A stretch of 64,000 bases of DNA from Bilabrum cf. latius (GCA_965178125.1 OZ237758.1:186001-250000); one strand, 5' to 3'. Positions 3 through 63,800 are shown, counted from the first letter of the stretch. Notes: generated by a model not told the origin, from the sequence alone. Made by a program: numbers and translations.

Positions 3-2645
3 GCAACAAGGATGGAGCAGGCGCAGGGGCAGGCGCAGGCCTCGCCAGCGCCGTCCACGGCAACGTTCGGTGCCGGGCTCGGGCGCACTGCTGATTCGCT
101 CGGATGGCAGCCGACTGGCACCGGCCACTCGTCACACGCTGCCACACTGGCCGAGAGAGTGCTCCATGAAACCAGGCGGCCAGTCCAGCAGCAGCAGCAG
201 CAGCAGCAGTCTACTGGCAGCTAGCTCGAGGGCAAGGGCAAGGGCAGGAGTGAGATTGCAACTGCGGAGGAGAAGCCCTCCGTGACTGTGTGGCTGCTGC
301 AGCGGCGCGTGGAGGCCCTGGAGAGGGAGAAGCAACAGCAACAGCAACTGCACTTCACGCAGAAGGACGAGGCCGCCAGTACCGGCAGCTGGTACGACAG
401 TGCCGACGAACAAGAAGCGGGTGAAGAGGATGACACGCTCGAGGACTTGGTGTCACCCCCGGCGCAGCCGCACCCATCTTCACGCGGTAGCAGGACACGC
501 AAGTCCACGCGGGCACGTGCCGCTTCTTCTTCTTCTTCTTCTGCGTCCAAGGGCAGCCGAGTCCGTGCTGGTTGCTCCTCCCGGAGAGGCGGGTCTGGTC
601 ACAGGCAGCAGCGGATGCGCTCTCAACCAAGTGGCGCAGCGCGTGCCAGGGATACCAGCAGAAAGGGCAGAGGCAGGGACAGGGACAGGGTTAGCCGCAG
701 CCATCGCCGGAGGGTGGCTTCCCTCTCGCCCGCATCTGCAGGGACCAGGGAGCTCGAGGCTGACGTATCGCCGCCAGCACCCGTCGCTGCACGCGGACGC
801 GTTCACAGAGGGTCCAAGGCCCGCAGGGTCTCCACCCGGGCCGCGCGCACTGTCCCTAGCTCTGGTTCTGGGTCTGGCCCCGCCAAGGTGCTTCCCTGGG
901 AGCATGCTGCAGGTTTGCATGCAGCTGGCCACGGCCGCATGGAATCGAGCGCATTTGCGCCCCTTGGGGAGGAGGACGAGACGGGGTCATATGCGGAGGA
1001 GTAGGAGACTGGCAGCTCGATGGTGGATGACTCAGGCGCGCTGAACACCGTGAGTGAGTCAAGGCACTACGTCGTTGAGGAGGAGGAGGAGGAGGACTCG
1101 AGGTTCGGGCCTTCCAATGGTGTCCTGCCAGCCGATTCCACGACTGACATGTCTGCGGCGCTGGACGAGGAGGAGCGCATGAGGATGAGGAGCAAGAGCA
1201 CAGCGGGAGCAGAATACGATGATGAGGAGGAGGAGCAGGAGCAGGAGCAGGAGGATACGTCGAATGGCAGTGACCTGCCAGCCCCGACGGCCCTCGTGTT
1301 CAGAGAGGCAGCCAAGGACCGGAGAGCATTCCCCCTCGCTGGCGCGAGAGCGAGGGGAGCGAGGGCGCCGGAGAACAAGGAGGGGAGGCGGCACGCAGCC
1401 GAGTCTGCCGCGAGGGTGAGGCGGTCCAAGTCTAGGAGCAGGGGCGCCAAGAGGAAGAGCAAGAGCAAGAGCAAGGGCAAGGACAGCGGTCAGCGCGAGG
1501 CCACTGGCGCGGCGATGCCTTGCAAGGCAGGTGGACCGCGACTGGTGGGACACACGCCTATCCGCGGCGCATCGGCGAACGCCCCTGCTCCCGCGTAGAT
1601 GGTGCCATGGGAGGCCCCCGGGCATGCCTCGCGGTCGCGTTCCCTCCCTCGTGGCGTGCATCGCACTGCGGGGCATGCCAGGCCAACGGCTGGGGCAAGC
1701 TCCCTTGGGACGGGGGCCGCCCCTCGGCGGGCAGCTCCCAAGGCCTCCCCGCACAAGGGGCCTGGTCGCAGAGCCGTGTCCACTCCGAGGAAGGACCACA
1801 AGGCGGGTGCTTCCAGGCCAGGGGTCGGGGTCGGGGGAGAGGCAGGGGCGCCTTCCGCTGCCCTCGGTACGACGGGGCCTGGGCGTGCCCCCGCCGGACC
1901 GGTCAGCTGGAACACTCGTCATCTCAGCAGCAACAGTAGTCACACTAGTAGCTCCCGGCCAGTGGGGCCATCTCTTGCTCGGCCGGGAAGCTCGCTACCT
2001 TCGTCTTTGGCGAAGCCGCTCCAGCCCCACCCCCACCAGAGCTCTGGCGCGGTGGCAGCCGAGGTCCAAGCGATGCTCATGAGAGCAGAAAAAGACGCAC
2101 AGCAGGGGCACGGGCAGGCAGCCGCACTAGCGGCCGCGCTGCGCCGGGCCATGGGCGTGGATGGCAGCGGCCCGGTGGCCGGCGGCGCGTCAGTGGCCCA
2201 GTCGAGGGGGCCTTGGCCCAGTGCCGCCAGTGCCATTGCCAGCCACGGACCGGCCTCTCGTTCTAGTGGCCCGTGGAGCAGCTCTGGGAGAAGCATGGGA
2301 CCGTCACTGATGGACGCGAGTTGCTCGCAGCGGGATGCGAGCATGGGCAGAGCGCGTGCCAGCCAGGTCGGCGGCGAGCTGGATGCTTCTGACGGGTTGG
2401 ACGGGTCGTGGGCCGAGGTGCAGGAGCAGGAAGAGGGGGAGGAGCGTCACGAGGGAAAGGGAACAGGCGGGGGTCCCGTGGTACTTGAAGTGAGCGCGAG
2501 TGGGGCGGTCGATGCGGGGGCGGGACCCCAGCTGGGGCGAGGGGCGAGCGTGGGTCAGCAACAGGGTGGCATGAACGAGCTGCCGGCCGCTTCCCGCAGC
2601 AGCGCTCTGTCGCCTATCCCTCGAGCCAATAGATTGCGAGCATGA
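3..2645 (+). CDS. Hypothetical low-complexity protein, probably 5'-truncated by the window edge
   Basis: ORF-track pieces 12-224, 282-1004, 1020-1598 and 1599-2645 share one frame. They are separated only by TAG (222, 1002, 1596) and the frame ends in TGA. Q/S/R/E-rich, with no recognisable domain. Confidence 0.7.
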
Positions 2646-2810
2646 ATACATCTTAGTTCTGAGTGCAATACGACTTGTTTGCTTCGAATTCGAATCGCGT
2701 GAGCCACACTGCGTGCCATAGAGGCCCGTTTGGAGCCGGTCACGATCGATCCGATGGTTTCGAGCCAGCCTTCGCCCGCCGCGTGGCCGCGTTCCTGGCA
2801 CACTTCTGCG

Positions 2811-4352
2811 ATGACAACCATCGATGTAATTGCCGTGGTGGCAATATGGCTGCTAATTTCCATTATTTGGGCAGCAACTGATCTGCTGGTATACTTTGGG
2901 CTGTGCTGCTTGTGCTGTAGAAGCCAAACGGGCGCCGATCCAAACCAGTCTGTAACCAACAACTCTGCAGCCGCGGCCAACGATGCAGATGAGGCGTCAC
3001 GCCCCTTGACTCCAACCAAGGATGAACAAACAGGATCTGGTTATAAGAAGAGCTCCGGCAATGTCGCGGAGGAGGGGCAGGCCAACGTGCTTTGCTGCGG
3101 ACGATTCGGTGGCTGCTGCACCTTGGGGCAGTACCCCCTCTTGCAGCTGCTGTTTCATTTGACCCTATCCTTTCCAATCGGATTTCTGGCAGCGGCTGCA
3201 ATTATCGCAGCGTATGTGGCAGCCACGGCGAACGCGAACAGGTTTCCCGGCGTGGCCTCGGGCGAATGTGAAGACTCTTGCACGCCGGGCGGTGACCAGT
3301 ACTGCTGCAGCTACAACCTGCAGACCCGTAGGTTTGGAATAAATAATTTTACCGGTAGCGCAAACCCTTCAGATGTGTGGTTCTCTTCGGCTTACGCCGA
3401 GGACCGCTTCGGGCCGGGCGGGGCCGTGCTGGTGGATCCCTCCGAGAGCCAGGCCGGCCTGCCGGACGGCACAGACCTGCACGGCTGGTACTTTGTGAAC
3501 GCAACGGACCCCGCCGCCGATAGTCCTGGCTGCAGCACTCCCACGCCGTGGCTAACCATCTTGTACAGCCATGGTTCGGGCTGGAACGTCGGAGTTGAAT
3601 ACCGCAAGTCGCGGTATGAGTGGCTCCTGTCCCTTGGGAGGGTGAGGGTCTTCGTCTACGACTACCCCGGCTACGGCAAGTCCGAGGGCAGTCCCACCCC
3701 AGAGAGCGTGTACACTTCCTCCTTGGCCGCCCTTCGCTGGCTGGAGGCGCGGGCTGCCCTCGAGGAGCCCGGGCGAGACCCCCGGGGGGCGGGGGACCGG
3801 ACCGTGCTGCTGGGCCGCTCCCTGGGGGGCAACCAGGCCGTGCGACTCGGAGCCGAAACGGTACCCCGGGACGGTCCAGCCGAGGAGGCCCTCAAGTCGC
3901 GCGGGGGCCGCGCCAGGGCCGTGCTCTTGTGGAGCAGCTTCACCTCGTGGCGGGAGTCCACGGCCTACATCTACCCATTGCTCGGCTGGGCCATGGGCGG
4001 GCCCCTGCAGCCCAGCGAGGGGTACGACACCGCGGAGCAGATCCAGCCGTACGGCCAGGGGTCTCAGGATGCGGGAGAGGCACCTCCCCCCGCGTGCCTG
4101 TTTTAGTCCCACTCCCCTGACGACGAGTGGGTCAAGTTCCAGGACGCCGAGAGGGTCTTCGAGGAGGCGAGCGACGTGCCGACGGAAGCGATTCCCCCGG
4201 CGCAGTCGGAGTCGTGCCCGGGGAGGCCGAGCGGCCCCGTGGACTGCAAGCGGTTCGTCCGGCTGCCTGCGGGCACGAAGCACGACGACGGCATCACGGC
4301 CGAGGAGGAGCCGCTGCTGCGCGAGTGGCTACAGGCGCAGCGAAACAGGTGA
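2811..4352 (+). CDS. Membrane-anchored alpha/beta hydrolase (ABHD13/ABHD17-like), about 513 aa
   Basis: Two hydrophobic segments, then ILYSHGSG, YDYPGYGKSEGSP and the GRSLGG nucleophile. After the in-frame TAG at 4104 come SHSPDDEWV (Asp) and KHDD (His), then TGA at 4350-4352. The start could alternatively be 2754. Confidence 0.85.
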
Positions 4353-32230: not shown

Positions 32231-32855
32231 GATTGATTGTTGGCAGACAATTTTGCTCCTAAACTAGAATTCGCTTTAGTGACGTGTAGTTTGACACCGA
32301 GAACTGCATTCTCATCGGTCGGTGGGGGTGGTCGTTCACGAAGAAGCGGCTGACAAGCGAGCTTCTATCGGTTCTTCTTCGGCTGGATGGTCGAATTCGC
32401 TATCGTAGGGGTAGCTGGCACAGTATCGTTCGCTCACGTATCCCGAATAGGCCAGCTGCTCGCATCGACACTGCCGCAGTGCTCAATCGCTTTGCTACCT
32501 GTCCATCCGTCTCGTTGGGACAGAGAAGCCGAGAGGATCGCAGCAGAGACTAAGTGAGACTATTTTGTTTGCAATCAATCCTTTTTGGTAGGCTGTCGCC
32601 GACAGTGCTTGCCAATCACGCAGCGAATGTTTCTGGTTTCCGTTCAGACCATTTGATGTCACTACCACCCTACTTATATCCTTCGCCCACCGGTCGTGCA
32701 GGACCCCAGTATCTGAGTTAAAGCCCCCGGTCGTCTACATTCCAGGCGGTCGCTTGATCGGAGGGGAGTGGGAGTTCCTAGAGCTAGCAGCAACTAGGTA
32801 CGGCGTTCGCTGCGACTTGGACCCCCACGAATTAAGGGCACACGCAAGAAAGCAC

Positions 32856-38200: not shown

Positions 38201-38427
38201 TGACTCTCTACAAGGCCGGGATTGACCTTCACATGTGCACCGTGGTAATCCAGAGGAAGCAGCCTAGGGACGCGCCCCCCAAGGGGACGTACCCGTTCAC
38301 GCTGCAGTGCGGCGGGAGGAAGTTCTGGTTTGCGGCGACCTCCGCAGACGAGCGGAGAGTGTGGGTCACCATGCTGTGCGAGATCACACAAGAGAGCCCC
38401 GAGGTAGTGCTGGAGGGGTTCGAGTGA
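35201..38427 (+). CDS. Low-complexity protein with a C-terminal PH domain, about 1,040 aa, intron 35280-35383, 10 in-frame TAG
   Basis: PH domain: REGQLWK...WRKRWACV..EKLYYF...YPFTLQ...FWFAATSADERRVWV. The upstream fragments are all in frame, joined by TAG at 35431, 35692, 35884, 36121, 36127, 36385, 36460, 36466, 36703 and 37774. Intron reads GTGAGT...TTGCAG. Ends in TGA. Confidence 0.8.
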
Positions 38428-40147: not shown

Positions 40148-40480
40148 TGCAGAAAATTGATTGAAATAAATACGCAGAAAGCAATAGAAGCAGGCGAATG
40201 CAGGCAGGCATGGCAGGAGAAAAAAAAACTAACCGGTTGCATTTGGAAATCAATGTAGGCTGAACTAGAGCTTTGTACTGGCCTTCGCAGCGGGAATCAC
40301 CACAGATCAGCAGAACAAACAATGAAACGCATCAATGCCTCGCGCAAGTAGACATGCTCTTGCGGATGCGAACGGTTGCGGCGATGACATGCCGACTCGG
40401 AAGGAAAGTTCTCTCCTCGGAGCAAATCAAACCGCCAGTGGGGTCCCGCAAACAACCGCTGCAGCTCCCCTTCGCTGACA

Positions 40481-43400: not shown

Positions 43401-43785
43401 TGGGGCGCTGCGGTTGCCTGACACGCGATTCGGCGTCGGCACGTATGAATTCGTATTGTCCTTCAAGAAACAGGCCTTGGAGCTGCGTGGTGCGGTCAGA
43501 GGAGCTGGCATAAAATCCCGATCTTGTCATTGCCACGTCAATACTTCAACTTTTCATTAGCTTAGAAACATCAGACCCTTACTCGGTATCGTACGTAAAT
43601 GCAAAGCATCCGTACTGGTCGTTGCACTGCGTGCAGCAATCGCTTGCAGAGGTTGCAGTGGTCTGCTGTCCGCCAGTGCCCACGATGACGTTTTCTACCG
43701 TGCTGCACCCAGCGTCGCACACCTTTGCAGTGACGACAGAAGCTGATGCAAGGACTGCAAGCATTCCAAGCTGAGAGAGTACCAT
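40481..43785 (-). CDS. Secreted GH3 beta-xylosidase/glucosidase with an N-terminal PAN/apple-like module and C-terminal Fn3-like domain, 899 aa, 4 exons
   Basis: Signal peptide; DCCTQC...CFAFTY..SKACFLK; TSFPSP; WSPNINVCRDPRWGRCQEVPSE; KHWAAY; MCSYNAI; WGFTGYVTSDSGAI; EREGYDR; YNPGGKMPVT; GRTYRFY; QLAGFQRV. GT-AG introns at 43483-43582, 42677-42955 and 42013-42238 restore the frame. Confidence 0.93.
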
Positions 43786-44767: not shown

Positions 44768-46336
44768 TCACGCCCTCCCTTCCAGCTTGTCGTCCACAAG
44801 GGCGCATATCCTGCACTCGGCATAGTGCGCGCACCGGTCCACTCGCTCGGCGAAATTAGAGAACCGCTCGGCAGCCCGCAGGTCCTCCTCATGCGCGCCC
44901 TTCCCCTCCCACTCTCCACCCCCACCTGAACCTTGACTCCCACTTGCACTCCCACTCTCGCTCTCGGTATCACCCTCGGCCTGCACTCCCTCCGCCACGC
45001 CCAGAGCCTGCCTCCGCCACGCCAGCCTCCCCCAGTACTCCTCCTCCCCCTTGCTGTTCCCCAGCTCGTCCTTCACCGCCTCCCACACATCCTTCCCGCT
45101 CCCCGTGGCGCGGGCATCCACCCCCGCCGCCCTGGAAGGCAGCCACTGCCACAGGTTCTCTGGGCCCCACACGATGGGCACGGCCCCAGCCACCAGCGCG
45201 TGGCTCAGCTCCGGCTCCACCCAGTCCCAGTCCAGAGAGCTCTGCGCCACGATCACGAACCGATAGGTCTTGAGGAGCGCCAGGCGAGTGGGCAGGTGCT
45301 CCAGGGCGCGGCTAAACTATGGGCCGGGCGGTGCTCCCGTGTTCTTCACAGGGCCCGTGTAGGCGTGCACGAGGCCCTCCATCCCGTCGGCCTTTGCCGC
45401 CGCCATAAACTCCCGGAGGCCTTTCATTGCAGTGCCGTGCACCCCTCTGTCGCTGAACATGGCGATGCCCCTCCCGGGGGACTTGTCCCCGGGGCCCACG
45501 GGGGATAGGTAGGGGGCAGCCAGGGGTCCGTAGGTTGCAACCGCTGCGTCCGATGCGGGCGGCTGTCCCCAGGGGCACATCAGGCTGACGGGGATGGTGG
45601 CCTCCTGCGGCGCCGCCGCGCTGAAATCGAACCTCTCCCTCATCTCCTGGCTCCTGAGGGTGTGCCCTGGGTATGCGCCCTCTGGTTCCATGTAGAACAT
45701 GCCCAGCACCGGTCGCCCGTCCTGCCCCTTACCCGGCTGTCTCTTCAGCATCTCGTCCTCCTTCCCGTGCCAGGGCCACTGGAAGCCCCCTTGCACGCCG
45801 AACTTGGGCACGTTCACGGACTCGACAACGATCGCGTCAGGCGCGGCGTCGCCCTCCGTGGGTACGGCTCCACCCTGCTGGTGCTGGAACACGCAATCGA
45901 GGCCGGGGCACGGCTTGTCCACGTGCACGCCGGCCGCTGCCCACATGAGCTCGGCCGAATGCTGGCTCGGGCCTCCCCAGCCCGGCCAGACGCCAGTGTT
46001 GATCTTGCCGCCACCGTCGCCGCCGGTGTACAAAACAATGCGTCGCTTCGTAGGGGGTGATCTCCGTACGATTGGTGGCGGCGTCGGATGAAACTTGCGC
46101 ACGACTGCTGGTGCAGGAGCTGCTGATTGAGGAGCCGGATCAACCATACCAGTTTCAAGCTACTGATGCGAATCTGGCTGCCGAGCTTGGTCATTCGCTT
46201 GAGGCTAAAGAGAGTTTTCAACCTGCTGTTCAGGCGATGTGTCTCTATTCCAGTAGTACAAGGCAACAGATAGCAAGATCGCGACGACAAGAACTATAGC
46301 CATCACTTCCCGGCAAGCAAGGGGGAAATACCGCAT
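44768..46336 (-). CDS. Type II membrane GT10 (alpha-1,3-fucosyltransferase-like) protein with a degenerate catalytic motif, about 522 aa
   Basis: N-terminal TM segment (VMAIVLVVAILLSVALYYW), FYMEPEG, and YRFVIVAQSSLDWDWVEPELSHALVAGAVPIVWG. Joined through TAG at 46205, 46160 and 45317. Ends in TGA. Confidence 0.7.
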
Positions 46337-46626
46337 AATTCCGCCGGGTCTTCCCTTCTTGCCATGTTTGCCGCCATCATATCGCTGAGGCCTTCTGCCT
46401 AACCCCCCGGGTCGCGGCAACGGCATGCTTGAATGCTTTTTTGTCCGTGGTCACAGGTGTGACTACTAGTGTATTAAAACGTGATAATTTAGCTTGAATC
46501 TGGTATTCCTCTGTATCATCACATCGCTTCACGACAAGGCTCTTCTATCAGCAACATCCTAGAATTCCCGTAGTATTTGCCACCATTTCGTTTGTTTAAA
46601 GTGCTGAGCCTGCCTGAAGTGGATTA

Positions 46627-49600
46627 ATGTCCGGGAATTGGGGACAAGGGGGACCGTCAGGGAACGGCAACGGGCCAAGGCCAGGTTTGGGCCATGGATC
46701 CCAACTGCCACCTCATCTGGCGGGCGCTCGAGGCCCTCCAGTCGGCGGAATGCAGCAGTAGTTCGGTATTAATCCAATGGGCGGCGGTGCACGGCCGGGA
46801 TTTGGGCTTGGTGGGGGAGGGCTGCCTCCGCACATGCAAGCCATGGGCCGGCCTGGCATGCCGATGCCTGGCTTTCCAATGGGAGGTATGCCGGGGATGC
46901 AAGGGCGTCCAGGCATGCCAGGTATGGGACCTGGTGCCCCGGGTGGATTTGCAGGTCGCCCAATGCCTGGCATGGGCTTGCCTCCGCACATGCTCGGAGT
47001 CCCGGGTGCTCGCCCCATGCCCATGGGAGGGCATCCGGGGGGAATGATGTCTGCCCGCCCCGCCATGGGCTCGGTACCCCCGCGACTACCCCCCGGGGTG
47101 TTGCCGCCTGGTGCTGGGGGCGCTCTTCCCCCAGGTGTAACGAGGGGCCACGCCCAAGGCGGATCGAGCGGGGCAGGAGCAGGAGCTGGCCTGCAGGTTC
47201 GCTTCGCGGGCGGGAGTGTCCCTATGTCGGACGATGGAAGCGGCCCTTCCATGCAGGAAGTGGCCTCCTCCAGCCACTTCGTCTCCCAGACCACCGGGGC
47301 GGGGGGCGGCGCAGTGCTCGCCGCGCCGAGGCGGCAGAAAACGATCGTGAGACACACGAGAACCATGCCGCAGCCAAGAATCACATTGAGACATCCTCGC
47401 CGCAGCCCCTTAGGCTCGATCGCCCGGGAATCTCATGTTCAACTCCTGCCTGCCCCTCGACTGCAGCCGTCCCACGACCATAGCTCCGCCTGTTTGCCCC
47501 CTTACTTGTCCCCGCAGCAACAGCAGAGGGAGGAGAGACTCCGGGCCTGGAAGCGGGCCACCAAGGCCAGGCACTCCCAGAGAGCGTCCTCCTCCGCGGG
47601 GGGTCACGCCGGAGGTGACGCGGGTCAGAAGGAGGAGATGCCGCCCGAGCACGTCCGCAAGACGGTGCGGGACCACGGGGACATGTCCGCCAAGAAGTTC
47701 CAGAAGGAGAAGAGGGTCTACCTGGGCGCCCTCAAGTACGTGCCCCACGCCATCCTGAAGCTGCTGGAGAACATGCCCATGCCCTGGGAGTCCGAGCGCA
47801 AGGTCAAGGTGCTCTACCACGTCACCGGCGCCATCACCTTCGTCAACGAGGTGCCACGGGTGATCGAGCCAGTGTACCAGGCGCAGTGGGCCTCCATGTG
47901 GGTCATGATGCGCAAGGAGAAGACCGACCGCAGGCACTTCAAGCGCATCCGGTTTCCCATCTTCGACGACGAGGAGCCCCCCATCGACTACCAGGAGAAC
48001 ATCCTGGAGATCGAGCCCCCGGAGCCGATCCGCATGGTGCTGGACCCAGAAGACGACGCGGCGGTGGCCGACTGGTTCTACGACCACAAGCCCTTGCAAT
48101 ACGACCGGACCGCCACGAACGGCCCCTCGTACCGCCGCTGGCGGCTCACCGTGGCGCAGCTGACTGCCCTCCACCGGCTGGCCTCCCCCTTGCTGAGCGA
48201 TGCCGAGGTGGACAAGAACAGCAAGCACCTCTTCGACCTGCGGTCCTTCTACACCGCAAAGGCCCTCAACGTGGCCATCCCTGGCGGGCCCAAGTTCGAG
48301 CCGCTCTTCCCAGACACCAAGGAGGACGACATGGACTGGACCGAGTTCAACGACATCCGCAAGATCATCGTGCGCTCCCCCATCCGCACAGAGTACAGGG
48401 TGGCTTACCCGCACCTGTACAACTCCAGGCCCCGCGCCGTGCACCCCCCTCACTTCCACTACCCCGCTTCCGTGTACATCAAGGCAGAGGACATCGACCA
48501 GCCGGCCTTCTACTGGGACCCTGTCCTGAACCCCATCACCATGTACTCGCACAAGGTGCAGTAGGACGCTGAGGACAAGCGGAGGCTCGAGGCGGCCAGG
48601 AGGGCGGCACGCAGGGGGCGGGGCCTGCTGCGTGCCGAGGACGCCAGGAGGACTGGCTGGGGCACGGCGGGGGACGTGGCCCAGGCCATGGCGCAGGACC
48701 AGGAGACCAGGGCCGCGGTGGACTCGGCCGGCGGGGATCCCCTGGCCGTTGCGAGGCGCAGGCGGCTCGCGAGAGAGGCGGAGGAGGAGCGGATGGGCGC
48801 GGGGGCGGCCGGCGGGTCTGCGTCCTCCTTCGGCATGGCTGGGTTTGGCATGGCCGGGACTGGGCGGGGCGCCAGCACGGGCTCCCTGCGAGGGGGCAAG
48901 CATCGCTTCGACCGGTCGGATCCCGCGCGGTGGGAGCCGTCGCTGCGGGCCGCTGCTGACGTGGAGGAGGACCAGGAGCCTCTCAGCATGGCGGGGCGGG
49001 GCGCGCTGGGGGTGCCTCTGCTGGCCCGGGTGCACATCTCGAACGAGCTGACGGCAGATGCCATCGCCCTGTACCACGCCTAGGCCCCTTTCAACCAGAG
49101 GAGCGGGTACACGCGGCGGGCCATCGACGTGCCGCTGGTGCAGAGCTGGTACCAGGAGAGGTGTCCCCCCGGCATGCCGGTCAAGGTGCGCGTCTCATAC
49201 CAGAAGCTGCTCAAGGGCTGGGTCCTGAACGCGCTCAAGAAGAAGGCCATCCGGCCCACAAGCAAGCGCAGCCTGCTCAAGGAGCTCAAGAAGACCAAGT
49301 TCTTTCAGTGCACGCAGCTCGACTGGGTGGAGGCCGGCCTGCAGGTGTGCCGCCAGGGCTACAACATGCTCAACCTGCTCATCCAGAGGAAGCGGCTGTA
49401 CTACCTGCACCTGGACTACAACTTCAACCTCAAGCCCACCAAGACGCTCACCACGAAAGAGCGGAAGAAGGGCCGGTTCGGGAACGCCTTCCACCTCATC
49501 AGGGAGATCCTTCGTCTCACCAAGCTCGTGGTGGACGCACACGTTCAGTTCCGCATGGGCAACATCGACGCGTACCGGCTGGCGGACGGGCTGCAGTACA

Positions 49601-52600
49601 CGTTCGCGCACGTGGGCCAGCTCACGGGCATGTACCGGTACAAGTACCGGCTCATGCGGCAGATCCGCATGTGCAAGGACCTCAAGCACCTCATCTACTA
49701 CCGGTTTAACACGGGACCGGTGGGCAAGGGGCCTGGCGTCGGGTTCTGGGCCCCGGGGTGGCGCGTGTGGATCTTCTTCTTGCACGGCATGGTGCCCCTC
49801 CTGGAGAAGTGGCTCGGCAGCTTGCTGGCCCGTCAGTTCCAGGGCAGGGGCAACCGGCAGAAGAGCATCACGCTGACCAAACAGAGGGTGGAGAGCCACT
49901 ACGACCTGGAGCTGAGGGCGGCCGTCTTCCACGACATCGTGGACATGATGCCCGAGGGCATCCGCAGGACCAAGGCCCGGGTCATCCTGCAGCACCTCAG
50001 CGAGGCCTGGAGGTGCTGGAAGGCCAACGTGCCATGGAAGGTGCCTGGGATGCCCGTGCCCGTGGAGAACATGATCCTGCGCTACGTCAAGGCCAAGGCG
50101 GACTGGTGGACGAACGTCGCCCACTATAACCGCGAGAGGATCGCGAGAGGCGCCACGGTGGACAAGACCGTCGCGAGGAAGAACCTCGGGCGGCTGACCC
50201 GGCTGTGGCTCAAGGCCGAGCAGGAGCGGCAGCACAACTACCTCAAGGATGGACCCTACCTGTCCAAGGAGGAGGCAGTGGCGATCCACGCCACCACGGT
50301 GCACTGGCTCGAGTCCCGGCGGTTCGTGCCCATCCCTTTGCCCCCAATCAACTACAAGCACGACACCAAGCTGCTGATCCTGGCCCTGGAGAGGCTCAAG
50401 GAGGGCTTCATCAACAAGATCAAGCTGAACCAGTCCGAGCGGGAGCAGCTGGGCCTCGTGGAGCAGGGCTTCGACAACCCGCACGAGACCCTGACCATGA
50501 TCAAGCGCAGCCTCCTGCGGCAGCAGGCATTCAAGGAGGTGGGCATCGAGTTCTTCGACCACTTCAGCTACATCAGCCCCGTGTACGCCATCGAGCCGAG
50601 AGAGAAGCTCACGGACGCCTACTTGGACCAGTACCTCTGGTACGAGGCCACCAAGAGGAGGCTCTTCCCGAACTGGGTCAAGCCATCGGACGCGGAGCCC
50701 CCTCCGCTGCTCGTGTACAAGTGGTGCGAGGGTGTGAACAACCTGAGGGGCGTGTGGGAGACGGGCCAGGGGCAGTGCGTGGTGATGCTGCAGACCAAGC
50801 TGGAGCAGCTGCACGAGAAGATGGACCTCATGGTCTTCAACAGCCTGCTCAAGCTCGTGGTGGACCACAACATGGCCAACTACATGACAGGCAAGACCAA
50901 TGTGCAGCTGGCCTACAAGGACATGCAGCACGTCAACCACTTTGGTCTCATCCGCGGGCTGTCCTTCTCCTCCTTCATGTACCAGTACTACTCGCTCATC
51001 GTGGACCTGCTGCTGCTGGGCCTCACTAGGGCATCGGACATTGCGGGCACCCCGCAGCGGCCCAACCCCTTCCTGACCTTCGCTGACGACGACACGGAGA
51101 AGAGGCACCCCATCCGGCTGTACATGCGCTACCTGGACAAGGTCTACATGCTGCTGATGCTGTCGGCGGACGAGAGCAGGGACCTCATCCAGAGGTACCT
51201 CACGGAGCACCCGGACCCCAACAGCGAGAGCTACGTGGGCTACAAGAACAAGCGGTGCTGGCCCAGGGACGCTCGCATGCGGCTCATGAAGCACGACGTG
51301 AACCTGGGGAGGGCGGTCTTCTGGGAGATGAAGAACCGGCTGCCGCGTGCCATCACCACGCTGGAGTGGGACAACTCGTTCGTCAGCGTGTACAGCAAGG
51401 ACAATCCCAACCTGCTGCTCGACATGGCCGGCTTCGAGGTGAGAATCCTGCCCAAGTGCCGCGTGGCGCAGGGCGAGTTCCAGCACAAGGACGGGGTGTG
51501 GAATCTGCAGGACGAGGTGACCAAGGAGCGTACCGCGCAGGCGTTCCTCCGCGTCGAGGAGCGGGCCATCCGCGAGTTCGAAAACCGGATCAGGTACGTG
51601 CTCATGTCCTCGGGCAGCGCGACCTTCACCAAGATCGCAAACAAGTGGAACACGAGCCTCATCAGCCTGATGGCCTACTACAGGGAGGCCGTCGTGCACA
51701 CGCAGGAGCTGCTGGACCTCCTTGTCAAGTGCGAGAACAAGATCCAGACCAGGGTGAAGATCGCGCTCAACTCCAAGATGCCTAACCGGTTTCCCCCCGT
51801 GGTGTTTTACACCCCCAAGGAGCTGGGCGGGCTCGGCATGCTGTCCATGGGACACATCCTCATCCCGCAGAGCGACCTGCGGTACAGCAAGCAGACCGAG
51901 ACGGGCGTGACCCATTTCCGCGCAGGGATGTCGCACGACGAGGACACGCTCATCCCTAACCTCTACAGGTACATTCTGCCCTGGGAGTCGGAGTTTCTGG
52001 ACAGCCAAAGGGTGTGGGCAGAGTACGCAGGCAAGCGGGAGGAAGCCACCCGGCAGAACCGCCGGCTCACGGTGGAGGACCTCGATGACGCCTGGGACCG
52101 CGGCATCCCTCGGATCAACACGCTGTTCCAGAAGGACAGGCACACGCTGGCCTACGACAAGGGCTGGCGCATCCGCACGGAATTCCGCCAGTTCCAGGTG
52201 ATGCGGTCTGACCCCTTCTGGTGGACGTAGGTGCGCCACGACGGAAAGCTCTGGAACCTGAACAACTACAGGACGGATGTGATCCAGGCGCTGGGCGGCG
52301 TAGAGACCATTTTGGAGCACACGATGTTCAAGGGGACGTACTTTCCCACGTGGGAGGGGCTCTTCTGGGAGAGGGCAAGCGGCTTCGAGGAGGCCATGAA
52401 GTACAAGAAGATCACGCAGGCGCAGAGGTCCGGGCTCAACCAGATCCCCAACCGGCGCTTCACGCTGTGGTGGAGCCCCACGATCAACCGCGCCAACGTG
52501 TACATCGGATTCCAGGTCCAGCTGGACCTGACGGGCATCTTTATGCACGGCAAGATCCCCACGCTCAAGATCAGCCTGATCCAGATCTTCAGGGCGCATC

Positions 52601-54993
52601 TGTGGCAGAAGATCCACGAGGGCATCGTGATGGATCTGTGCCAGGTCTTCGACCAGGAGCTGGACACGCTGCAGCTGGAGACGGTGCAGAAGGAGACCAT
52701 CCACCCGAGGAAGAGCTACAAGATGAACAGCTCCTGCGCCGACATGCTGCTCTTCGCCAGCTACAAGTGGAGGGTCAGCGACACGTCGCTCCTGCACGAC
52801 GCCAACGACACCTTCGACGGCACCACGACCAACAAGTACTGGGTCGACGTGCAGCTGAGGTGGGGCGACTACGACTCGCACGACATCGAGAGGTACTGCC
52901 GGGCCAAGTTCCTCGACTACACCACGGACAGCACCTCCATCTACCCCTCCCCGACCGGGGTGCTGCTGGGCGTGGACCTGTGCTACAACCAGTACAGCGG
53001 ATACGGGCAGTGGTTCCCCGGCTGCAAGCCCCTCATGCAGCAGGCCATGGCCAAGATCATGCAGGCCAACCCCGCGCTGTTCGTCCTCCGCGAGAGGGTG
53101 CGCAAGAGCCTGCAGCTCTTCTCCTCTGAGCCCACGGAGCCCAACCTCTCGAGCCAGAACTTCACGGACCTGTTCACGGACCAGATCATCTGGTTCGTGG
53201 ACGACACGAACGTGTACCGGGTGAGCATCCACAAGACGTTCGAGGGCAACACCACGAGCAAGCCCATCAACGGCGCGGTCCTCATCCTCAACCCCAAGGA
53301 CGGCACGCTCTTCATGCGGATCATCCACACGGACACGTGGAAGGGGCAGAAGCGGCTCTCCTCCCTCGCGAAGTGGAAGACCTCGGAGGTGGTGGCCGCG
53401 CTCATCCGCAGCCTCCCGGTGACGGAGCACCCCAAGCAGATCATCATCACGCGTCGGTCCCTCATGCCCTCGCTCGAGATCAACATGCTGGACTTCCCCA
53501 ACATCATCCTCAAGAGCTCCGACCTGCAGCTGCCCTTCCAGGCTCTCCTCTCGGTGGAGCTGCTGGGCGACAGGGTTATCCGCGCCCCCAAGGCGGAGAT
53601 GGTCATCTGCAGCGCCTACGACGACTGGCGCAACAGCATCAAGTCGCACACGGCCTTCTCCAGGCTGATGCTGATCCTGCGCGCCCTCCACGAGTCCATC
53701 GAGGAGGCGAGGGCCATCCTCAAGCCGGACAAGACCGTGATCACGGAGCCGGGGCACCTCTGGCCCACCCTGTCGGACGAGGAATGGGCCAAGGTGGAGA
53801 TCCAGCTCAAGGACCTCATCCTGCAGATGTACGGCCGCAAGAACAACGTCAACGTGGCGTCGCTGACCAACTCGGAGATCAGGGACATCATCCTGGGCGC
53901 GGACATCGCGCCGCCTTCCCAGCAGAGGCAGCAGATCGCGGAGATCGAGAAGCAGGCCAAGCAGCAGACGCAGATGACCGAGACCACGACCAAGAGCTTC
54001 AACATCCACGGGGACGAGATCGTCGTTGCCACGCAGTCCAACTACGAGCAGGACGCGTTCGCCTCCCGCACGGACTGGAGGCGTAGGGCCCTCCTGGCTG
54101 GCTCGCTGCACCAGCGAACCAGGAACGTGTACGTCACGGGGGCGGATCTCGAGGACGAGGGCACCACGTACGTGCTGCCCAACAACGTCCTGCGCAAGTT
54201 TGTGGCCGCCAGCGACCTGAGGACGCAGATCGCGGGGTTCTTGTACGGTTCCTCTCCCGAGGGCAGCACCACGATCAAGGACGTGCAGTACATCGCCATG
54301 CCCCCGCAGACGGGCACTCACCAGAACGTGACGCTCCCCGAGCAGCTGCCCCGGCCGGACCCCCTCACGGAGGGCTTGGAGCTGCTGGGCTGGATCCACA
54401 CGCAGCCGGCCGAGGCCCCCTTCTTGAGCTCGTTCGATGTGGTGACGCACGCCAAGCTCATGGAGTCCCACGGGAGCTCCTTCCCACGCGACCCCGTGGT
54501 GGTGACGTGCAGCTTCGCGCCTGGCTCGGTGTCTCTCAGCGCGTACACGGTGACGGAGGAGGGGCTCAAGTGGGGCAGGGCCAACAGGGACAAGGGCGGG
54601 CAGGACCCGACAGGGTTCTCGGGTCCGGCCATGTGCAGCAAGGCACAGGTGCACCTCAGCGACGCGTTCCGGGGCGCTTTCCTGCTCCCAGCGGAGGGCG
54701 TGTGGAACTACAACTTCATGGGTACGAGGTTCGCCCCAGGGGAGCCGTATGGCCTGCGGCTGGGCAACCCCGAGCCGTTCTACCACGCCTCCCACCGACC
54801 GACGCACTTTTTGCAGTTTACACAAGCGGCGGGGGGCAAGTCGGGCGGTGGCGGAGGCAGCGGCAGCGGGCGGGGCCCTGCCCAGGCCGCCGGTGGCTCC
54901 GACGGCGAGGACTCAACGACGGAGGAGGACCTTATCGCCAAGGTGGGTCGCATGATGGACACCGAGGCTGATATGGAGGACTTTTTCGCGTGA
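46627..54993 (+). CDS. PRPF8: Pre-mRNA-processing factor 8, about 2,730 aa; 4 in-frame TAG; probable in-frame intron 47347-47517
   Basis: Unmistakable Prp8 sequence: [89 protein letters not shown] at 46759, 48562, 49081 and 52228. Ends in TGA. Confidence 0.97.
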
Positions 54994-55193: not shown

Positions 55194-56186
55194 TCATGAA
55201 AGTACACTCGCTAGGAATTCGGCCGCGTATTTGGCGGCCCCCTCCGGCACGGCGTGGTCGAGCTTGCCGAACGTCTTGAGCTCCACCTTGCTGCCTCCCT
55301 CCGCGCTGCTTGCCTCTGGCAGGCCCGCCGCTTGTTTCCAGCATTCTGCTTGCCCCTGTGCCCGCTTCGCCCAGTCCCACGGCACGATGTTGTCTGCGCC
55401 GCCGTGCACGAACACGAGCGGTGTTTGAACACCAGCAGGGAGCGGTGAGTGGTCCCCTGCTGTCCCACTTTTCCCTCTCTCCTACTCCTTGGAGACAGGT
55501 CGTTTGTCACCAGTAAATAGTCCTTTTCCTTTCCAGTAGGTATCATTCTAGTCCATTGGCAAGTACCCGCCGAGCACGGCGGCGCCGCCAAGCGGGCAGG
55601 CTCCCGACCAGGTCATGCTGCTCGCAAGCGTCATTGCGCCGCCCATTGAGAATCCAATGAGCCCGCATTTCGTAGCAGGCAGCTTGAGTGCGTCCAGCTA
55701 CTCCCGAATGAGACTTTGCACGGCCTCGATGGCATCATCAAAGCCAACACATTTTTCGTCTACTCGATCTTTCCAAGATTTGCCCCCGCTAGTGTCTACC
55801 TACCGATCGTACCACGCTGGTACAGTTTTTGACATACCATCAATATCGACTATGCCCATCTTCCCAGACTTCGGGACTAATATTCTTGCTGTTGGAAACA
55901 AAATGCGCACAGCATCGTGCATTGACTTGCAGCTCTTAGACGAATCGTAGACATCTGACCCGAGCCCATGCAAAATCAAGACAACTAGATCTGGCGTGGT
56001 ATCAGCAGGGTCAAGTTGAAGGAACTGCAACCATCGTTTTGCGGCGAGGCACTCGTGATTTCCAAAATGAGCTGCGCAACTGAAATATGCGAAGCGATCA
56101 CTCCATTCCTTAGAAATTCGGTTCTAGTCAGCTTCGGAATACTCATGTCCTTTACCAGACAAAATTTCACTTGGGACGCCGGCCAT
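55194..56186 (-). CDS. Acyl-protein thioesterase / phospholipase-carboxylesterase, about 330 aa, 5 in-frame TAG
   Basis: VLILHGLGSD, RILFPTA, PAWYD, LIGFSMGGAM, GGYLP, VFVHGGADNIVP, KTFGKLDHAV, all in one frame. TAG at 56124, 55800, 55698, 55548 and 55482. Ends in TGA. Confidence 0.88.
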
Positions 56187-60452: not shown

Positions 60453-60864
60453 GCACTATCATCCAAGGTGTCCGGCTTTTTGCATGTCTTTTATCCAAAT
60501 CAACGACTTTATCGGTGAACTTAGTGTCACTGGTGTTGTGACACGCTGTTGTATTTAGCGAGACACGCGGCACACAAGGTCTTGATCAAGCTCGTAATTT
60601 TCCATCTTGCGCAATTGATACCAGACGAATGCATGCAACATGGATAAATAAATACGGCGATGCTGCATAGGCCTGCCGACATGATTCTGGAAGCACTACA
60701 GGCCAGCGGTTGCACTTGGAGCAATTTGTCCGGTATTGCGTGAAGCGTAAACCACACGTTACCCTAGGGCACGCACACTTTTCTCGCACGACGATTTACT
60801 CAAGTTCGACTCATCTTGAACAACTTTATTCGCATAGTTTTATTGTTCCTATTATACAGAAGTC

Positions 60865-63800
60865 ATGGAGGAAGCGCTGTCTAGGTTTGAGGCAGCAGTA
60901 GCTGTGGCTGCCGGTGTCCCCCCGGATGCTGAAAGTGCAAGTCCTGATGTTCTGCGGCGCTACCAGCAGGCTGTAGAGTTTGTGAACAATATTGGAAGGA
61001 GCCCTGATCATGCACAGATGTGCGTGATTGCCCTTAGCCGAGCGAAAGAACCTGCATCTAGGCACATGGCGCTGACTGGTCTGCAGACGCTGCTGGGTGA
61101 TGCCAGGCTGAGCCAAGATTTGCTCCGCAAGCTGCAGCAAGGAGTCTTGGCGTGGTTACGTGATCATTTCGTGAAAGGCGGTGCCTCTAGAGAACCGTCT
61201 CACGTCCTCCGCAAGGCCTCCCACATGCTCGCTGTTCTCGTGCGGCGGACCTACCCGACCAACTGGAGCTCTGCCTGGAGGGACATATCTAGCCTTCTCT
61301 GCCCCACGACGGCCACACGCATGCGACCAGCACTGGCCAGCCTCGCTGAAGCACGCGGCAACCCGGAGGGCCTGGCGCGGGCGGAGCAGAGGGTGCGGGC
61401 GTGCGCCGTGTCGGCGCTGGCCCCCGGGTCCCCCGACGCGCCGCGATTCTCCTCCGCGGCCGAGGCGTCCGACAGGCAGCGCCTGGCATGTCACGTGTGC
61501 TTCCTTGGCCTGGTGCAGGAGATTGACGCGGAGATTGCATCGAGGGAGGCGCTCAGGGGCACCCTCCGGCACGAGATCAACAAGGAGGAGAGGGAAGCGG
61601 GGAGGGCAACTGCGGGGGCGGTGTCTCTGGGGGGGGCGGGAGGGGGGGCCGCCTCGGCGGCGTCGGCGGGGGAACGCAAGCGCGAGGAGCTAAACAGGGT
61701 GAAGGACGCGATGCGATCCGACGGTTCCCTGGCCCTAGCATGCGCTGCGTGCGCGGACGCTCTGGCCCTGGTCCCTGCCGTGCTCCGGATGGCCCCGGGA
61801 GCCTTCGGCGCTGGGGATACCCCGCTGGCGGCTGTGGTGCGCCAGGGGGCGCAGGTGCTGGCGCAGGTGACGCCCTGGGCGGATGCAAAGCTAGTATCTG
61901 CCCCTCCCCTGCTCAAGTTCCACGACAACGTGCTTCGAGCCGGAGCCGCAGCAGCAGCGGGTTCGTCGTCGTCGTCGGCTGCTGGTGCTGGGGCATCCGC
62001 CGCAGGGTCTTCCCCTCCATCGGCGCCGCCCTCATCATCGCTGGCACCCGCGTGGCTGCGGCTGGGCTGCATGCAGTGCCTGCGGGCGGCAGTGCGGAAG
62101 GGCATGCCGGTGCCGCAGCGACTTGCCATGGTGGTGCAGTCGGGCATGCACTCGCTCGCTGCAGGCCAGCGCCCGCCTGCCTGCGACATGCGCGCCACGA
62201 GGCGCAGGAGGAGGGCACTCTCGGGGCGGGCGCTGGGAGGAGAGCGTCCCTCCATCGGACACCGCGTGGTGTTCGAGCAGGTAGCCCCTGACGGCGCCAG
62301 GCCAGAGGCGTTCCTTGACCTCACGCAGCAGGGCGAGCTGGCGGTGGCCCGCGAGACGTGCGCCCTGGCCGCCCTGCTGCTGCAGCTGGGGCTAGAGGCA
62401 GCGAGGGAGCCCGCCGTGAGGTCTTCAGAGCCGGCCACGGCGGCCTGCGTTTCGCTCCTCCGAGCGGTTGTTCCCTGGGCCCTGGACCTGTTCGCGGGGT
62501 CGCCCCCCGAGGCGGCCCTGGAGCTAGGCGGCAGCATCCGGGCACTTGCAAACGAGGCGAGGCCACCTCCCGGGGCTCCAAGCGCCGCGGATGCGATTTT
62601 CGGCGGGGCTGCATCGGCCACAGGGAGGACGCGAGCCGGTGACAGGCCGGGGATCGCGCAGCTGCCCGGCTTTGCAGGCCGATAGATCGTTGAGCCGCTC
62701 GCGGACAGCCTTTTGGTTGCTGGACAGTACCCTCCTGGGTGGGAATACCGGGAGCCGGAGGGTGACGAGGACTACGACGGGGAAGGCAGCGACAGCGATA
62801 GCGAGGACGAGGGCGGTGGGGCGGCGGAGAGCAAGGGGGGCGGGGGCGGAGGCTCGGCAAGGTTCGCTGCATACGCCGACACCGTGCCCGCAGGCGCGGA
62901 CGCGGTGAGGCTGGAGGTGGCCAAAGCAGCGAGGGACGCGGGGCGGTTCTTCCCGGCGGAAACGCTGGGCAAGATCCTGACCCACCTGACCGGCTGGTCC
63001 GTGGCCGCGCCGGGTGCCGCAGAGCCAGCCGCGGCCGTCCTGGCTGCGCTGAAATCCGGGCAGTCTTCCCTGCCCGCCGCCCCCTTACGGGCGATGGCCG
63101 ATGCCGCCAACCGGGCAGACGGGGCTCACTGGAGAGGCAAGGCCTACGAGTGGGACGGGCTGGAGTCCGCGATGATGCTGCTGTACTGGTCCGGGGAAGG
63201 TATCGTCAAGCACCAGGGGACCACCGCGCAGCAGCTCGCAGCCATCTGCCAGCTCGTCGCGTCGGCCCCGTGGACCCACCCGCAGGTTGAGGTGGTGATG
63301 CAGTTCATGGACATCTGCCAGCGGTTCTCCCGCGTGTTTGGGACCGTGCCCGCCCTCTTCGAACCGGTGGTGCGGGCCCTTCAGGGCAAGCACGGCATCG
63401 CCAGCCCGAGCGTAGCGGTGCGGGAGCGGGCAGCGTACGTGCTGCTGGACACGGTCAAGCAGGCCGCGAAACTCCCCCGCAAGGCGGGCCAGCCGGCCGT
63501 GGGGGCTGCCGCCAAGCCACTCCTCGCCAGCCTCAGGCAGCGCCTCGCGCCCGCCCGACTGCCCTCGGTGCTCATGAGGGCGGCGCAGGGGGGAGACGCG
63601 AGCGCACGGGCGGCGGTCGCCAAGGTGCAGAAGGCCGCGCCGTCGTGCGTTGCACCCCCGGACCGACGGGCCCCCGCGCTCAGCGTGTCCGCCCAGGGCC
63701 ACATCCTGGAGCTGTGCGGCTTTCTGCTCAAGCAGCCGTGGGTGCCCGCCGCCGTGCGGGGGGGCTTCACCTCGGAGGCCCTCAAGCCCATGGGATCGGC

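Follow-up and report, generated by a model that had tools for sequence, protein, structure and literature searches.

UAG as a probable glutamine codon in the nuclear DNA of a GC-rich eukaryote

UAG lies inside most genes of the GC-rich eukaryote sampled by the 64-kb stretch of DNA analyzed here (the window) and almost certainly encodes glutamine (Gln), a type of nuclear code change that is seldom met. The window, of which the GC content per 4 kb ranges from 0.576 to 0.721, is very probably nuclear DNA in which UAG is an ordinary Gln codon, UGA provides nearly all stops, and UAA is probably still a stop. The alignment blocks, the transcript and DNA contigs, and a syntenic relative agree with one another in supporting UAG as a sense codon in the window.

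In-frame TAG codons in genes and mature transcripts

Over 16,611 codons in 18 segments, representing 16 genes backed by Pfam, homology, synteny or transcripts (Table 1), we counted 52 TAG, 618 CAG and 100 CAA in frame, while both TAA and TGA were at zero. TAG comprises 52 of the 770 putative Gln codons (6.8%) and occurs in 12 of the 16 supported genes, confirming the observation in an earlier note of about 55 in-frame TAGs in 13 of about 20 genes. The counts given there for Prp8 (four), Rictor (16) and exportin-T (one) were right, and the TAG/CAG tract at 7796-7831 and the stretch at 46750 read as quoted. TAG acts as a minor synonym of CAG; the base 3' of TAG (G20 C16 A10 T6) matches that 3' of CAG (G240 C192 A116 T68), and the share of TAG drops with rising GC3, being zero in eS19 and GH3, 3% in Prp8, and 29-42% in the two enzymes with the lowest GC3. 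The TAGs at 28008, 27975 and 27939 (N-terminal histidine-phosphatase ORF) and three in the ORF at 3-2645 lack support as coding.

A codon-usage score, which is partly circular because it was trained on the same ORFs, found coding-like flanks on both sides of 24 of the 741 TAG, 0 of the 265 TAA and 1 of the 1,399 TGA triplets at a threshold of 0.15. At a threshold of 0.25, eight of the nine TAGs listed fell in annotated genes and one was antisense to Prp8.

The standard code splits Prp8 into 46762-48564, 49084-52230 and 52231-54993, while reading TAG through yields one frame of 2,791 codons with four TAGs (46618-54993) carrying eight Prp8 Pfam domains. The match to human PRPF8 (3,847 bits) aligned query positions 800-2738 as one stretch, colinear across two TAGs, and TAGs fall within ungapped Prp8 alignment blocks. 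The Rictor-like frame at 6719-23773 spans 5,684 codons with 14 TAGs, to which the upstream exon adds two, and no TAA or TGA was found in 5,941 codons.

In the part of the window compared with contigs of sequencing runs, all of the 19 coding TAGs lay within DNA contigs of two studies (X1 and X5) with no difference, and thus the C-to-T artefact, which the earlier note named as a finding that would overturn its reading, was not borne out. Fourteen of the 19 were also within spliced or polyadenylated transcript contigs of two further studies (X6 and X8; recognized by GT..AG joints or poly(A)) with no other letter at these positions, being therefore unedited and unspliced, albeit contigs lose rare variants and low-level editing could escape them. 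Altogether, in-frame UAG is found in conserved, expressed genes and is retained in mature mRNA, as a code with UAG alone reassigned to Gln demands. It is barely credible that the TAGs are untranslated, whether as sequencing or assembly errors, pseudogenes, targets of RNA editing or tiny introns, and this explanation is largely refuted: the TAGs recur across the four studies, are unaccompanied by TAA or TGA, and stand at the same two places of the nicotinamidase gene in a relative in which synonymous sites are saturated (200 of 537 identical residues share the codon). The transcript contigs evidenced six introns of 87-279 nt. In the long nicotinamidase ORF, the TAG at 32589 is intronic, and those at 32406, 32412 and 32448 do not share the reading frame of the real exon 1.

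Table 1. Genes of the window, with TAG positions read as sense codons
Gene	Coordinates	Strand	Exons and introns	TAG	Stop	Matches and transcripts
Alpha/beta-hydrolase	2703..4352	+		4104	TGA	Abhydrolase_6 E 1.8e-05, slightly below curated cut-off; coding-like on both sides of TAG
Rictor-like, ~5,900 codons	5877..23773	+	Exon 1 5877-6713; putative short GT..AG intron near 6715-6783; main exon to TGA at 23771	5991, 6111, 7805, 7820, 8012, 11633, 14048, 14387, 16238, 16478, 18545, 21692, 23045, 23060, 23078, 23738	TGA	RICTOR_N E 1.3e-23 (upstream exon); RICTOR_V E 3.6e-12
Protein without Pfam match	23926..26358	+		24268, 24436, 25225	TGA	ORF and codon counts; C-terminal part possibly LON-substrate-binding-like
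Histidine phosphatase	26428..27891	-		27159, 27030	TGA	His_Phos_1 E 1.1e-11; syntenic with L001, N-terminal alignment poor
PhyH-family dioxygenase	28200..29324	+		28440	TGA	PhyH E 1.5e-30
Nicotinamidase	32375..33737	+	Exon 1 to 32553; intron 32554-32701; exon 2 from 32702	32883, 33060 only	TAA	Isochorismatase E 1.5e-26; Acinetobacter nicotinamidase 2wt9 173 bits; GT..AG joint in X6 and X8; poly(A) loose end, ~33820
Ribosomal protein eS19, last exon	34111..34650	-		None	TGA	Homologues carry PF01090; depth 2,320 in X6, deepest transcript cover in the stretch compared
Low-complexity protein, C-terminal PH domain	35383..38427	+	Intron 35279-35382 upstream	35431, 35692, 35884, 36121, 36127, 36385, 36460, 36466, 36703, 37774	TGA	PH E 1.4e-13; X6 contig 35010-35278 + 35383-36397, 0 differences, retains six TAGs
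Ser/Asp/Glu-rich protein	38671..40296	-	Intron 40147-40233	39834, 39690, 39345, 38781	TGA	Spliced X6 and X8 contigs, 0 differences
Glycoside hydrolase family 3 (GH3)	40481..43600 (upstream end approximate)	-	Introns 42012-42237, 42676-42954, 43483-43582	None in last exon (GC3 0.89)	TGA	Glyco_hydro_3_C E 4e-46; CT..AC joints in X6
Protein without Pfam family	44768..46345	-		46207, 46162, 45319	TGA	X6 contig 45040-46424, 0 differences; C-terminal part possibly fucosyltransferase-like
Prp8	46750..54993	+	One uninterrupted frame, 2,747 codons from ATG	46759, 48562, 49081, 52228	TGA	Human PRPF8, see text; GC3 0.91
Phospholipase/carboxylesterase-type hydrolase	55194..56180	-		56126, 55802, 55700, 55550, 55484	TGA	Abhydrolase_2 E 5.8e-16; PDB alignments; GC3 0.57
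Exportin-T-like, runs off window	60862..63999	+		62683		Exportin-T E 3.1e-08

Glutamine as the probable residue

Gln is the best-supported residue for UAG, as judged from homologue columns, log-odds, and TAG/CAG exchanges with a relative, an evidence base of eight deep columns and one 4.7-kb metagenome sequence (L001). The log-odds summed over the eight columns were +5.1 bits for Gln, against -8.1 for His, -14.8 for Glu, -17.6 for Ser, -18.4 for Lys, -25.5 for Leu and -28.5 for Tyr. Two of the TAGs from which Gln had been proposed, that of PhyH at 28440 (VFT[TAG]RVNLW) and that of nicotinamidase at 33060, fall on columns with Gln in 118 of 133 representative homologues and in 63 of 80 loci, respectively, in agreement with that proposal. 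Against Gln, the two UAG columns in conserved Prp8 blocks face Pro (118/118) and His (120/121) in other eukaryotes. The weight of these two columns is mitigated by the general divergence of the window Prp8, which departs at 221 of the 1,523 columns conserved at 95% or more; of the 100 CAG codons that could be aligned, only 63 fall on columns with a Gln majority.

L001 is syntenic with the window (amino-acid identity 82% in nicotinamidase and 61% in PhyH) and also bears in-frame TAGs; it has CAG at the PhyH TAG column and TAG at both nicotinamidase places. Of the well-aligned columns, ten carry TAG in the window, in L001 or in both, with the partner being CAG in five, TAG in two, and GAA, CTA and AGC in one each. 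Thus CAG makes up five of the eight non-TAG partners, when Gln codons are merely ~4-5% of the aligned codons. It is highly improbable that UAG stands for another amino acid such as Leu, Ser, Glu, Lys or Tyr: the single L001 TAGs opposite CTA (Leu) and GAA (Glu), together with the Pro and His columns of Prp8, point that way, and both the log-odds and the prevalence of CAG among the informative pairs speak against it.

Termination and decoding

Among the 15 complete genes, 14 end in TGA, one in TAA and none in TAG. The earlier statement that TAG closes no gene is thus true, in part by construction, since TAG was treated as sense when the gene ends were set. The role of UAA as a stop rests on its in-frame absence, in ORFs partly delimited by TAA. 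The lone TAA stop, that of nicotinamidase, is followed 19 codons further by an in-frame TGA ahead of the poly(A) site, and so is no proof of termination at TAA. This fact and the scarcity of CAA itself (100 versus 618 CAG) leave some room for a code in which both UAR codons encode Gln (NCBI table 6 type), the high GC content making TAA so scarce that it escapes notice. Such a code is reported for Amoeboaphelidium, hexamitids and many ciliates; A. protococcarum resembles the window in the change from stop to Gln, and differs from it in that the window has no in-frame TAA. We consider this alternative very unlikely and rejected table 6 on the absence of in-frame UAA. If TAA stood to CAA as TAG does to CAG, the window should contain ~8 TAAs (100 x 52/618) and L001 ~3.5; none was found in either, the L001 alignments containing 13 CAA, 30 CAG, eight TAG and zero TAA. 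Likewise, Prp8 and Rictor, of which the frames are fixed by homology, had no TAA in 8,688 codons, and no TAA triplet had coding-like flanks.

Ambiguous stop/sense codons are known, namely UAA in Blastocrithidia, and also in Condylostoma. The TAG at 23738, 11 codons 5' of the Rictor TGA and followed by sequence resembling non-coding DNA, could be a stop, and another at 38781 precedes its TGA by 36 codons. It is nevertheless quite unlikely that UAG is sense within genes and stop near their 3' ends, since none of the 15 complete genes needs TAG as a stop, the sequence 3' of TAG 38781 is coding by score, and the base following TAG is the same as that following CAG.

If UAG is an ordinary Gln codon, it would be decoded by a tRNA-Gln(CUA) derived from tRNA-Gln(CUG), and UAG recognition by eRF1 would have been lost or weakened, as suggested by other lineages (PMC5304391). 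The CUA anticodon would be unable to pair with UAA. A search of the window, L001, L002, L003 and L019 turned up no tRNA gene, and no eRF1 gene was within the 64-kb window. Alternatively, but in our view unlikely, UAG is read under a weakened eRF1 by a standard near-cognate tRNA, e.g., tRNA-Gln(CUG), with no dedicated CUA tRNA. According to PMC5304391, the decoding tRNAs remain unidentified for most nuclear variant codes, which favors the alternative, but tRNA-Gln(CUA) is present in sequenced lineages with UAG or UAR reassigned to Gln, e.g., Tetrahymena and Spironucleus (PMC5304391). Furthermore, an enzyme of 328 codons with five TAGs, and Rictor with 16, would need efficient decoding.

Environmental relatives and known codes

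The UAG change appears to extend to two or more environmental relatives. The gene call P0182 (65 residues, 94% identity to the window PhyH) stops exactly before the TAG column, and both P0182 and P0136 look like standard-code fragments of TAG-containing genes. No close named relative was found in our sequence comparisons, including a Prp8 tree with no ciliate among its rows. We tentatively suggest that a poorly sampled, deep-branching clade of GC-rich aerobes, with at least three members (the window, L001, and the relative of 91-94% identity from which P0136 and P0182 come), may have changed UAG to Gln clade-wide and independently of ciliates, Iotanema and aphelids. If so, it would be one of few cases outside ciliates for which public runs contain both genomic DNA and transcripts. 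The CUA tRNA and the eRF1 change would then be open to direct inspection, and one could study how UAG reassignment originates in a genome with UGA instead of UAA as the dominant stop.

UAG alone is also reassigned in the rhizarian exLh (to Leu) and Scotinosphaera (to Ser), both of which keep UAA and UGA; the window differs from them in the residue (Leu -25.5 and Ser -17.6 versus Gln +5.1 bits). Rictor is not known from green plants and algae, and the window has a Rictor gene, a further difference. A 64-kb stretch with 58-72% GC and introns of 87-279 nt is, we assume, unlike ciliate macronuclear DNA. Nuclear code changes have been described in only a few dozen lineages, and those in which UAG and UAA differ in meaning are rarer, according to PMC11687900 and PMC5304391. 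The change of UAG alone to Gln has been published for Iotanema spirale, Protocruzia tuzeti and two phyllopharyngean ciliate lineages (PMC11687900), of which the ciliates (NCBI table 15 type) have the same codon table as the window. As this kind of code is already known, the window probably represents a new lineage carrying it. I. spirale (Fornicata) uses UAG for Gln and keeps UAA and UGA as stops (PMC5304391, PMC9161772), with the same predicted mechanism of tRNA-Gln(CUA) and an eRF1 change. It is described as an anaerobe living as an endobiont, was obtained from gecko faeces and is represented by a transcriptome, in contrast to the window with its 58-72% GC, a gene of an O2-dependent dioxygenase family, and UGA instead of UAA as the dominant stop. 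In our full-text literature searches, no GC-rich lineage outside ciliates was described as having UAG alone reassigned to Gln.

The apparently non-ciliate lineage would be a further, independent case from which to learn how UAG loses its role as a stop, offering genomic DNA, transcripts, environmental relatives, a strong GC bias and mainly UGA stops. If this genome and those of its relatives are annotated under the standard code, most genes will be split or truncated, and the protein databases and completeness estimates for the clade will be misleading unless table 15 is applied.

The window shares sequence, in small shares, with runs labelled as algae, protist and marine metagenomes. Amoeboaphelidium is a parasite of algae and could have explained the algae-labelled runs. 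We rejected it as the source, as its genomes have a GC content of ~40% (40.5% and 39.9%; Table 1 of PMC10608142), far from that of any 4-kb segment of the window.

In-Frame TAG Codons and the Status of the Other Stop Codons

The window represents nuclear DNA of a eukaryote; genes are packed densely on both strands, and its GC content ranges between 0.58 and 0.72 per 4 kb. Under the standard code, the Prp8 gene was split into pieces, whereas reading through TAG yielded a single frame of 2,791 codons with four TAGs. The translated frame matched human PRPF8 with 3,847 bits, and query residues 800-2738 aligned as one stretch spanning two of the TAGs. As the two lie inside an unbroken alignment, they are neither introns nor frameshifts. 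The Rictor frame comprised 5,684 codons with 14 TAGs but neither TAA nor TGA.

Features of the window and the TAG codons found in cDNA-bearing contigs
Feature	Position(s)	Strand	Basis or remark
Prp8	46750-54993		All eight Pfam domains
Rictor-like, very long	5877-23773		RICTOR_N, E 1.3e-23 (upstream exon); RICTOR_V, E 3.6e-12
Nicotinamidase			Pfam-named
PhyH-family dioxygenase			Pfam-named
GH3 glycosidase			Pfam-named
Two alpha/beta hydrolases			Pfam-named
Histidine phosphatase			Pfam-named
PH-domain protein			Pfam-named
Exportin-T-like protein			Pfam-named
Ribosomal protein eS19	34111-34650	-	Named from translation and homologues
TAGs in cDNA-bearing contigs	32883, 33060; 35431, 35692, 35884, 36121, 36127, 36385
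TAGs in cDNA-bearing contigs, continued	39345, 39690, 39834; 45319, 46162, 46207

Codons were counted exclusively in the segments backed by a family match, homology, synteny, or transcripts. Eighteen segments qualified, representing 16 genes and 16,611 codons. The in-frame totals were 52 for TAG, zero for both TAA and TGA, 618 for CAG, and 100 for CAA. TAG was present in 12 of the 16 genes, and those free of it were eS19, the last GH3 exon, and the genes at 31001-32230 and 58059-60449. The earlier note, made from the sequence alone, had counted about 55 in-frame TAGs, which agrees with our total, and its counts for individual genes were reproduced as well (16 for Rictor after the upstream exon was added). 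Some TAGs were excluded: 32589 is located in an intron, three (32406, 32412, and 32448) do not share the frame of the genuine exon 1 of nicotinamidase, and six have no coding backing (three upstream in the phosphatase ORF and three in the ORF at 3-2645). By a codon-usage score, 24 of the 741 TAG triplets were coding-like on both flanks, together with none of the 265 TAA and one of the 1,399 TGA triplets. As its training had used these very ORFs, and one of the nine TAGs listed at a stricter threshold was antisense to Prp8, we regard the score as supporting evidence only.

UGA is plainly the main stop, terminating 14 of the 15 genes that end within the window, the remaining one being terminated by TAA. 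If the TAA:CAA ratio equalled the TAG:CAG ratio, TAA would be expected in frame about 8 times in the window, the ORFs of which are partly delimited by TAA, and about 3.5 times in the syntenic metagenome contig L001, but none was found. The single gene ending at TAA possesses an in-frame TGA downstream, before the poly(A) site. UAA likely terminates translation. UAG may also be able to terminate, for instance at 23738, 11 codons upstream of the TGA of the Rictor gene.

The Rictor-like gene has approximately 5,900 codons; its recognizable parts are confined to the N-terminus and domain 5, and the remainder of the protein is low-complexity sequence rich in Ala, Gly, and Ser. At 4711-5780 on the minus strand, codon usage suggests a gene that terminates with a TAA near 4711 and runs antisense to the long plus-strand ORF at 4574-5782, of which the plus-strand reading received no Pfam match.

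TAG Codons in DNA and Transcript Contigs

The region 28001-38000 occurs in sequencing runs of four studies, deposited under four coded organism labels. We compared 31101-46600 with the contigs (not the reads) assembled from four runs, X1, X5, X6, and X8. All 19 coding TAGs of this region were within X1 and X5 contigs, with no other letter at any of them; the window itself may derive from X1, while X5 belongs to a different study. The run types of X6 and X8 are guesses, X6 being additionally flagged as probably DNA. The contigs of these two runs skip six intervals bounded by GT..AG (or CT..AC), some X6 contigs terminate in poly(A) or poly(T) (33820 and 33923), and depth ranges from below 5 to 2,320. 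The skipped introns, the poly(A)/poly(T) ends, and the uneven depth show that cDNA is present in both runs. The cDNA-bearing contigs contained 14 of the 19 TAGs, again with no other letter, while 36460, 36466, 36703, 37774, and 38781 were not covered by the transcript pieces among the matches listed (268 further pieces exist).

The lack of any other letter at these sites in the DNA and cDNA contigs indicates that the TAGs did not arise as errors of assembly and are not removed by splicing. The cDNA contigs, which are blind to rare variants, also indicate that the TAGs are unedited in the bulk of the transcripts. The earlier note had called for transcripts in which TAG is retained, and transcript contigs of this kind were found for the 14 codons.

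The deepest transcript cover within 31101-46600 was observed for the TAG-free eS19 gene. After 35740, an additional CAA (Gln) occurs in a single contig from each of X1, X6, and X8, alongside contigs without the insertion; a Gln-rich tract of the PH-domain protein is thus polymorphic in length. Across the GH3 gene (40497-43120), short contigs of higher depth, 90-99% alike to the window, were found in X1 alone; they could stem from another allele, from a paralogue, or from a related strain. The differences shown in these contigs hit no TAG.

The Amino Acid Assigned to UAG

Most genes use UAG as a sense codon, for which Gln is the best fit. The TAG at 28440 of the PhyH gene (VFT_RVNLW) corresponds to Q in 118 of the 133 sequences aligned among the best 150 representatives of a full HMMER search. 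For the TAG at 33060 of the nicotinamidase gene (VVLT_DFHP), 80 metagenome loci displayed Q in 63, R in 10, K in four, S in two, and a stop in one, the last being L001. Both motifs had been taken as cues for Gln in the earlier note, and the homologues bear this out. We further summed log-odds in the manner of Codetta, which the note had suggested for the whole assembly. The sum covered the eight columns represented by 20 or more homologues, including three in which the TAG is that of L001. Q ranked first with +5.1 bits, followed by H (-8.1), R (-14.5), E (-14.8), and L (-25.5).

Two TAGs in conserved blocks of Prp8 are opposite Pro (118/118) and His (120/121). The Prp8 of the window is divergent in general, deviating at 221 of the 1,523 columns with a conservation of 95% or more among 117 other eukaryotes, and of its 100 CAG codons that could be aligned, only 63 fall on Q-majority columns. 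Missing Q twice is thus unremarkable (about 0.14). The TAG columns of the Abhydrolase_2 hydrolase were discarded as uninformative because PDB alignments placed them at unconserved positions (K/M and T/E), and a homologue search with this protein returned no match. The structures aligned with PhyH in the PDB were too distant to be used for its TAG column.

L001 (4,718 bases; 56% GC), found in a metagenome scan with nicotinamidase, is syntenic with 27.5-33.3 kb of the window, covering the phosphatase, PhyH, the 31-32 kb gene, and exons 1 and 2 of nicotinamidase. At the amino acid level, nicotinamidase is 82% identical, PhyH 61%, and the 31-32 kb gene 41%, and only 200 of the 537 identical residues share a codon, synonymous sites being saturated. 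Its in-frame codons include eight TAG, 30 CAG, and 13 CAA but no TAA. In the well-aligned genes, ten columns contain TAG in at least one of the two sequences, and the partner codon is CAG in five, TAG in two, and GAA, CTA, and AGC in one each, while Gln codons account for approximately 4-5% of the codons in the alignment. The exchanges between the two include TVFT[TAG/CAG]RVNLW, GD[CAG/TAG]RFATGE, and STLP[CAG/TAG]CS. CAG codons of the window are opposite Gln-type codons of L001 in 17 of 32 cases, a rate about equal to that of TAG. Where the phosphatase aligns poorly, in its N-terminal part, TAG is opposite CAG, GGA, TCT, and GGG.

TAG and CAG were followed by G, C, A, and T in the same distribution (20, 16, 10, and 6 for TAG; 240, 192, 116, and 68 for CAG), indicating that TAG lacks a particular read-through context. 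Among the three codons CAG, CAA, and TAG, the proportion of TAG was lowest where GC3 bias is strongest (3% in Prp8; none in GH3 and eS19) and highest in the two enzymes with the lowest GC3, nicotinamidase (2/7) and the Abhydrolase_2 hydrolase (5/12), in which CAA is common too. Such a pattern is what mutation pressure on a synonymous C/T site would give.

Both coding TAGs of nicotinamidase (32883 and 33060) are TAG in L001 (4329 and 4506) despite the saturation of synonymous sites. This is somewhat above expectation, as TAG comprises 7-16% of Gln codons, but with two sites it could be chance. Between PhyH and the 31-32 kb gene, the window carries 30 tandem copies of a 52-bp unit with 97% matches (29508-31067); only about 340 bp separate these genes in L001, where the array appears to be absent.

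Relatives, Lineage, and Proposed Mechanism of the Code

Two proteins of the representative library reveal another relative. P0182 (65 residues; 94% identical to the window PhyH) ends right before the TAG column, and P0136 (91% identical) corresponds to the part following the next Met. The two are the products expected of a standard-code gene caller meeting the same TAG and point to a second relative besides L001. No in-frame use of TAG was demonstrable in the metagenome contig L019, of which nicotinamidase is 71% identical to that of the window with Q at the motif column. Two eukaryote-like metagenome contigs of 66-67% GC, L002 and L003, bear two tandem nicotinamidase paralogues that are 54% identical to the window's, with an intron-like insert and Q instead of TAG at the motif column.

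The full-length Prp8 shared at best 74% identity with the library sequences searched. In a FastTree phylogeny of 31 rows, hand-chosen from 120 matches without fungi, alveolates, rhizarians, amoebozoans, or excavates, the window and an environmental sequence paired on a long branch outside the named rows of oomycetes, ochrophytes, green plants, and animals. The top match, P0001, carries a contaminant label from a sturgeon assembly and was rejected as a relative, being an animal-type Prp8 with duplicated pieces. A scan of prokaryote genome contigs recovered only generic eukaryotic Prp8 of 56-78% identity. For eS19, one environmental relative was found at 86%, followed by the next best at 53% and the best named sequence, from a diatom transcriptome, at 46%; an Atlas search with eS19 returned archaeal clusters only. 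Parts of the window are shared, in small shares, with runs labelled as algae, protist, and marine metagenomes (X9-X20), which are no evidence on habitat.

The long GC-rich contig of the window, with introns of 87-279 nt, does not resemble ciliate macronuclear DNA. Reassignment of UAG alone to Gln is already known from Iotanema, Protocruzia tuzeti, and two phyllopharyngean lineages (PMC11687900). Iotanema is described as an anaerobic endobiont of a gecko (PMC9161772), whereas the window encodes a member of an O2-dependent dioxygenase family. We rejected an origin from the aphelid Amoeboaphelidium, as its genome has 40% GC (PMC10608142) in contrast to 58-72% in the window; in addition, Amoeboaphelidium reportedly uses TAA besides TAG (PMC6299283), unlike the window with no in-frame TAA. 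Full-text searches of a literature library covering few subscription journals, some of them directed at aphelids, found no GC-rich non-ciliate lineage with the UAG-only-to-Gln code. The organism is probably a further lineage with this already known code, common to a small clade.

UAG is probably decoded by a tRNA-Gln(CUA), one anticodon change from tRNA-Gln(CUG), which would read UAG but not UAA, together with a weakened recognition of UAG by eRF1. Both changes have likewise been proposed for Iotanema, and tRNAs of the tRNA-Gln(CUA) type have been found in Tetrahymena and Spironucleus (PMC5304391; PMC9161772). Neither the 64-kb window nor L001 contained a tRNA gene.

Prp8 is encoded by one intron-free frame with a GC3 of 0.91, and bears an N-terminal extension of approximately 290 residues rich in Gly, Pro, and Met, as well as an insert of approximately 150 residues (about residues 650-800 of the ORF) between the N-terminal domain and PROCN. 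The eS19 protein, 46-53% identical to every non-relative found, ends with an acidic C-terminal tail comprising a run of Glu and Asp.
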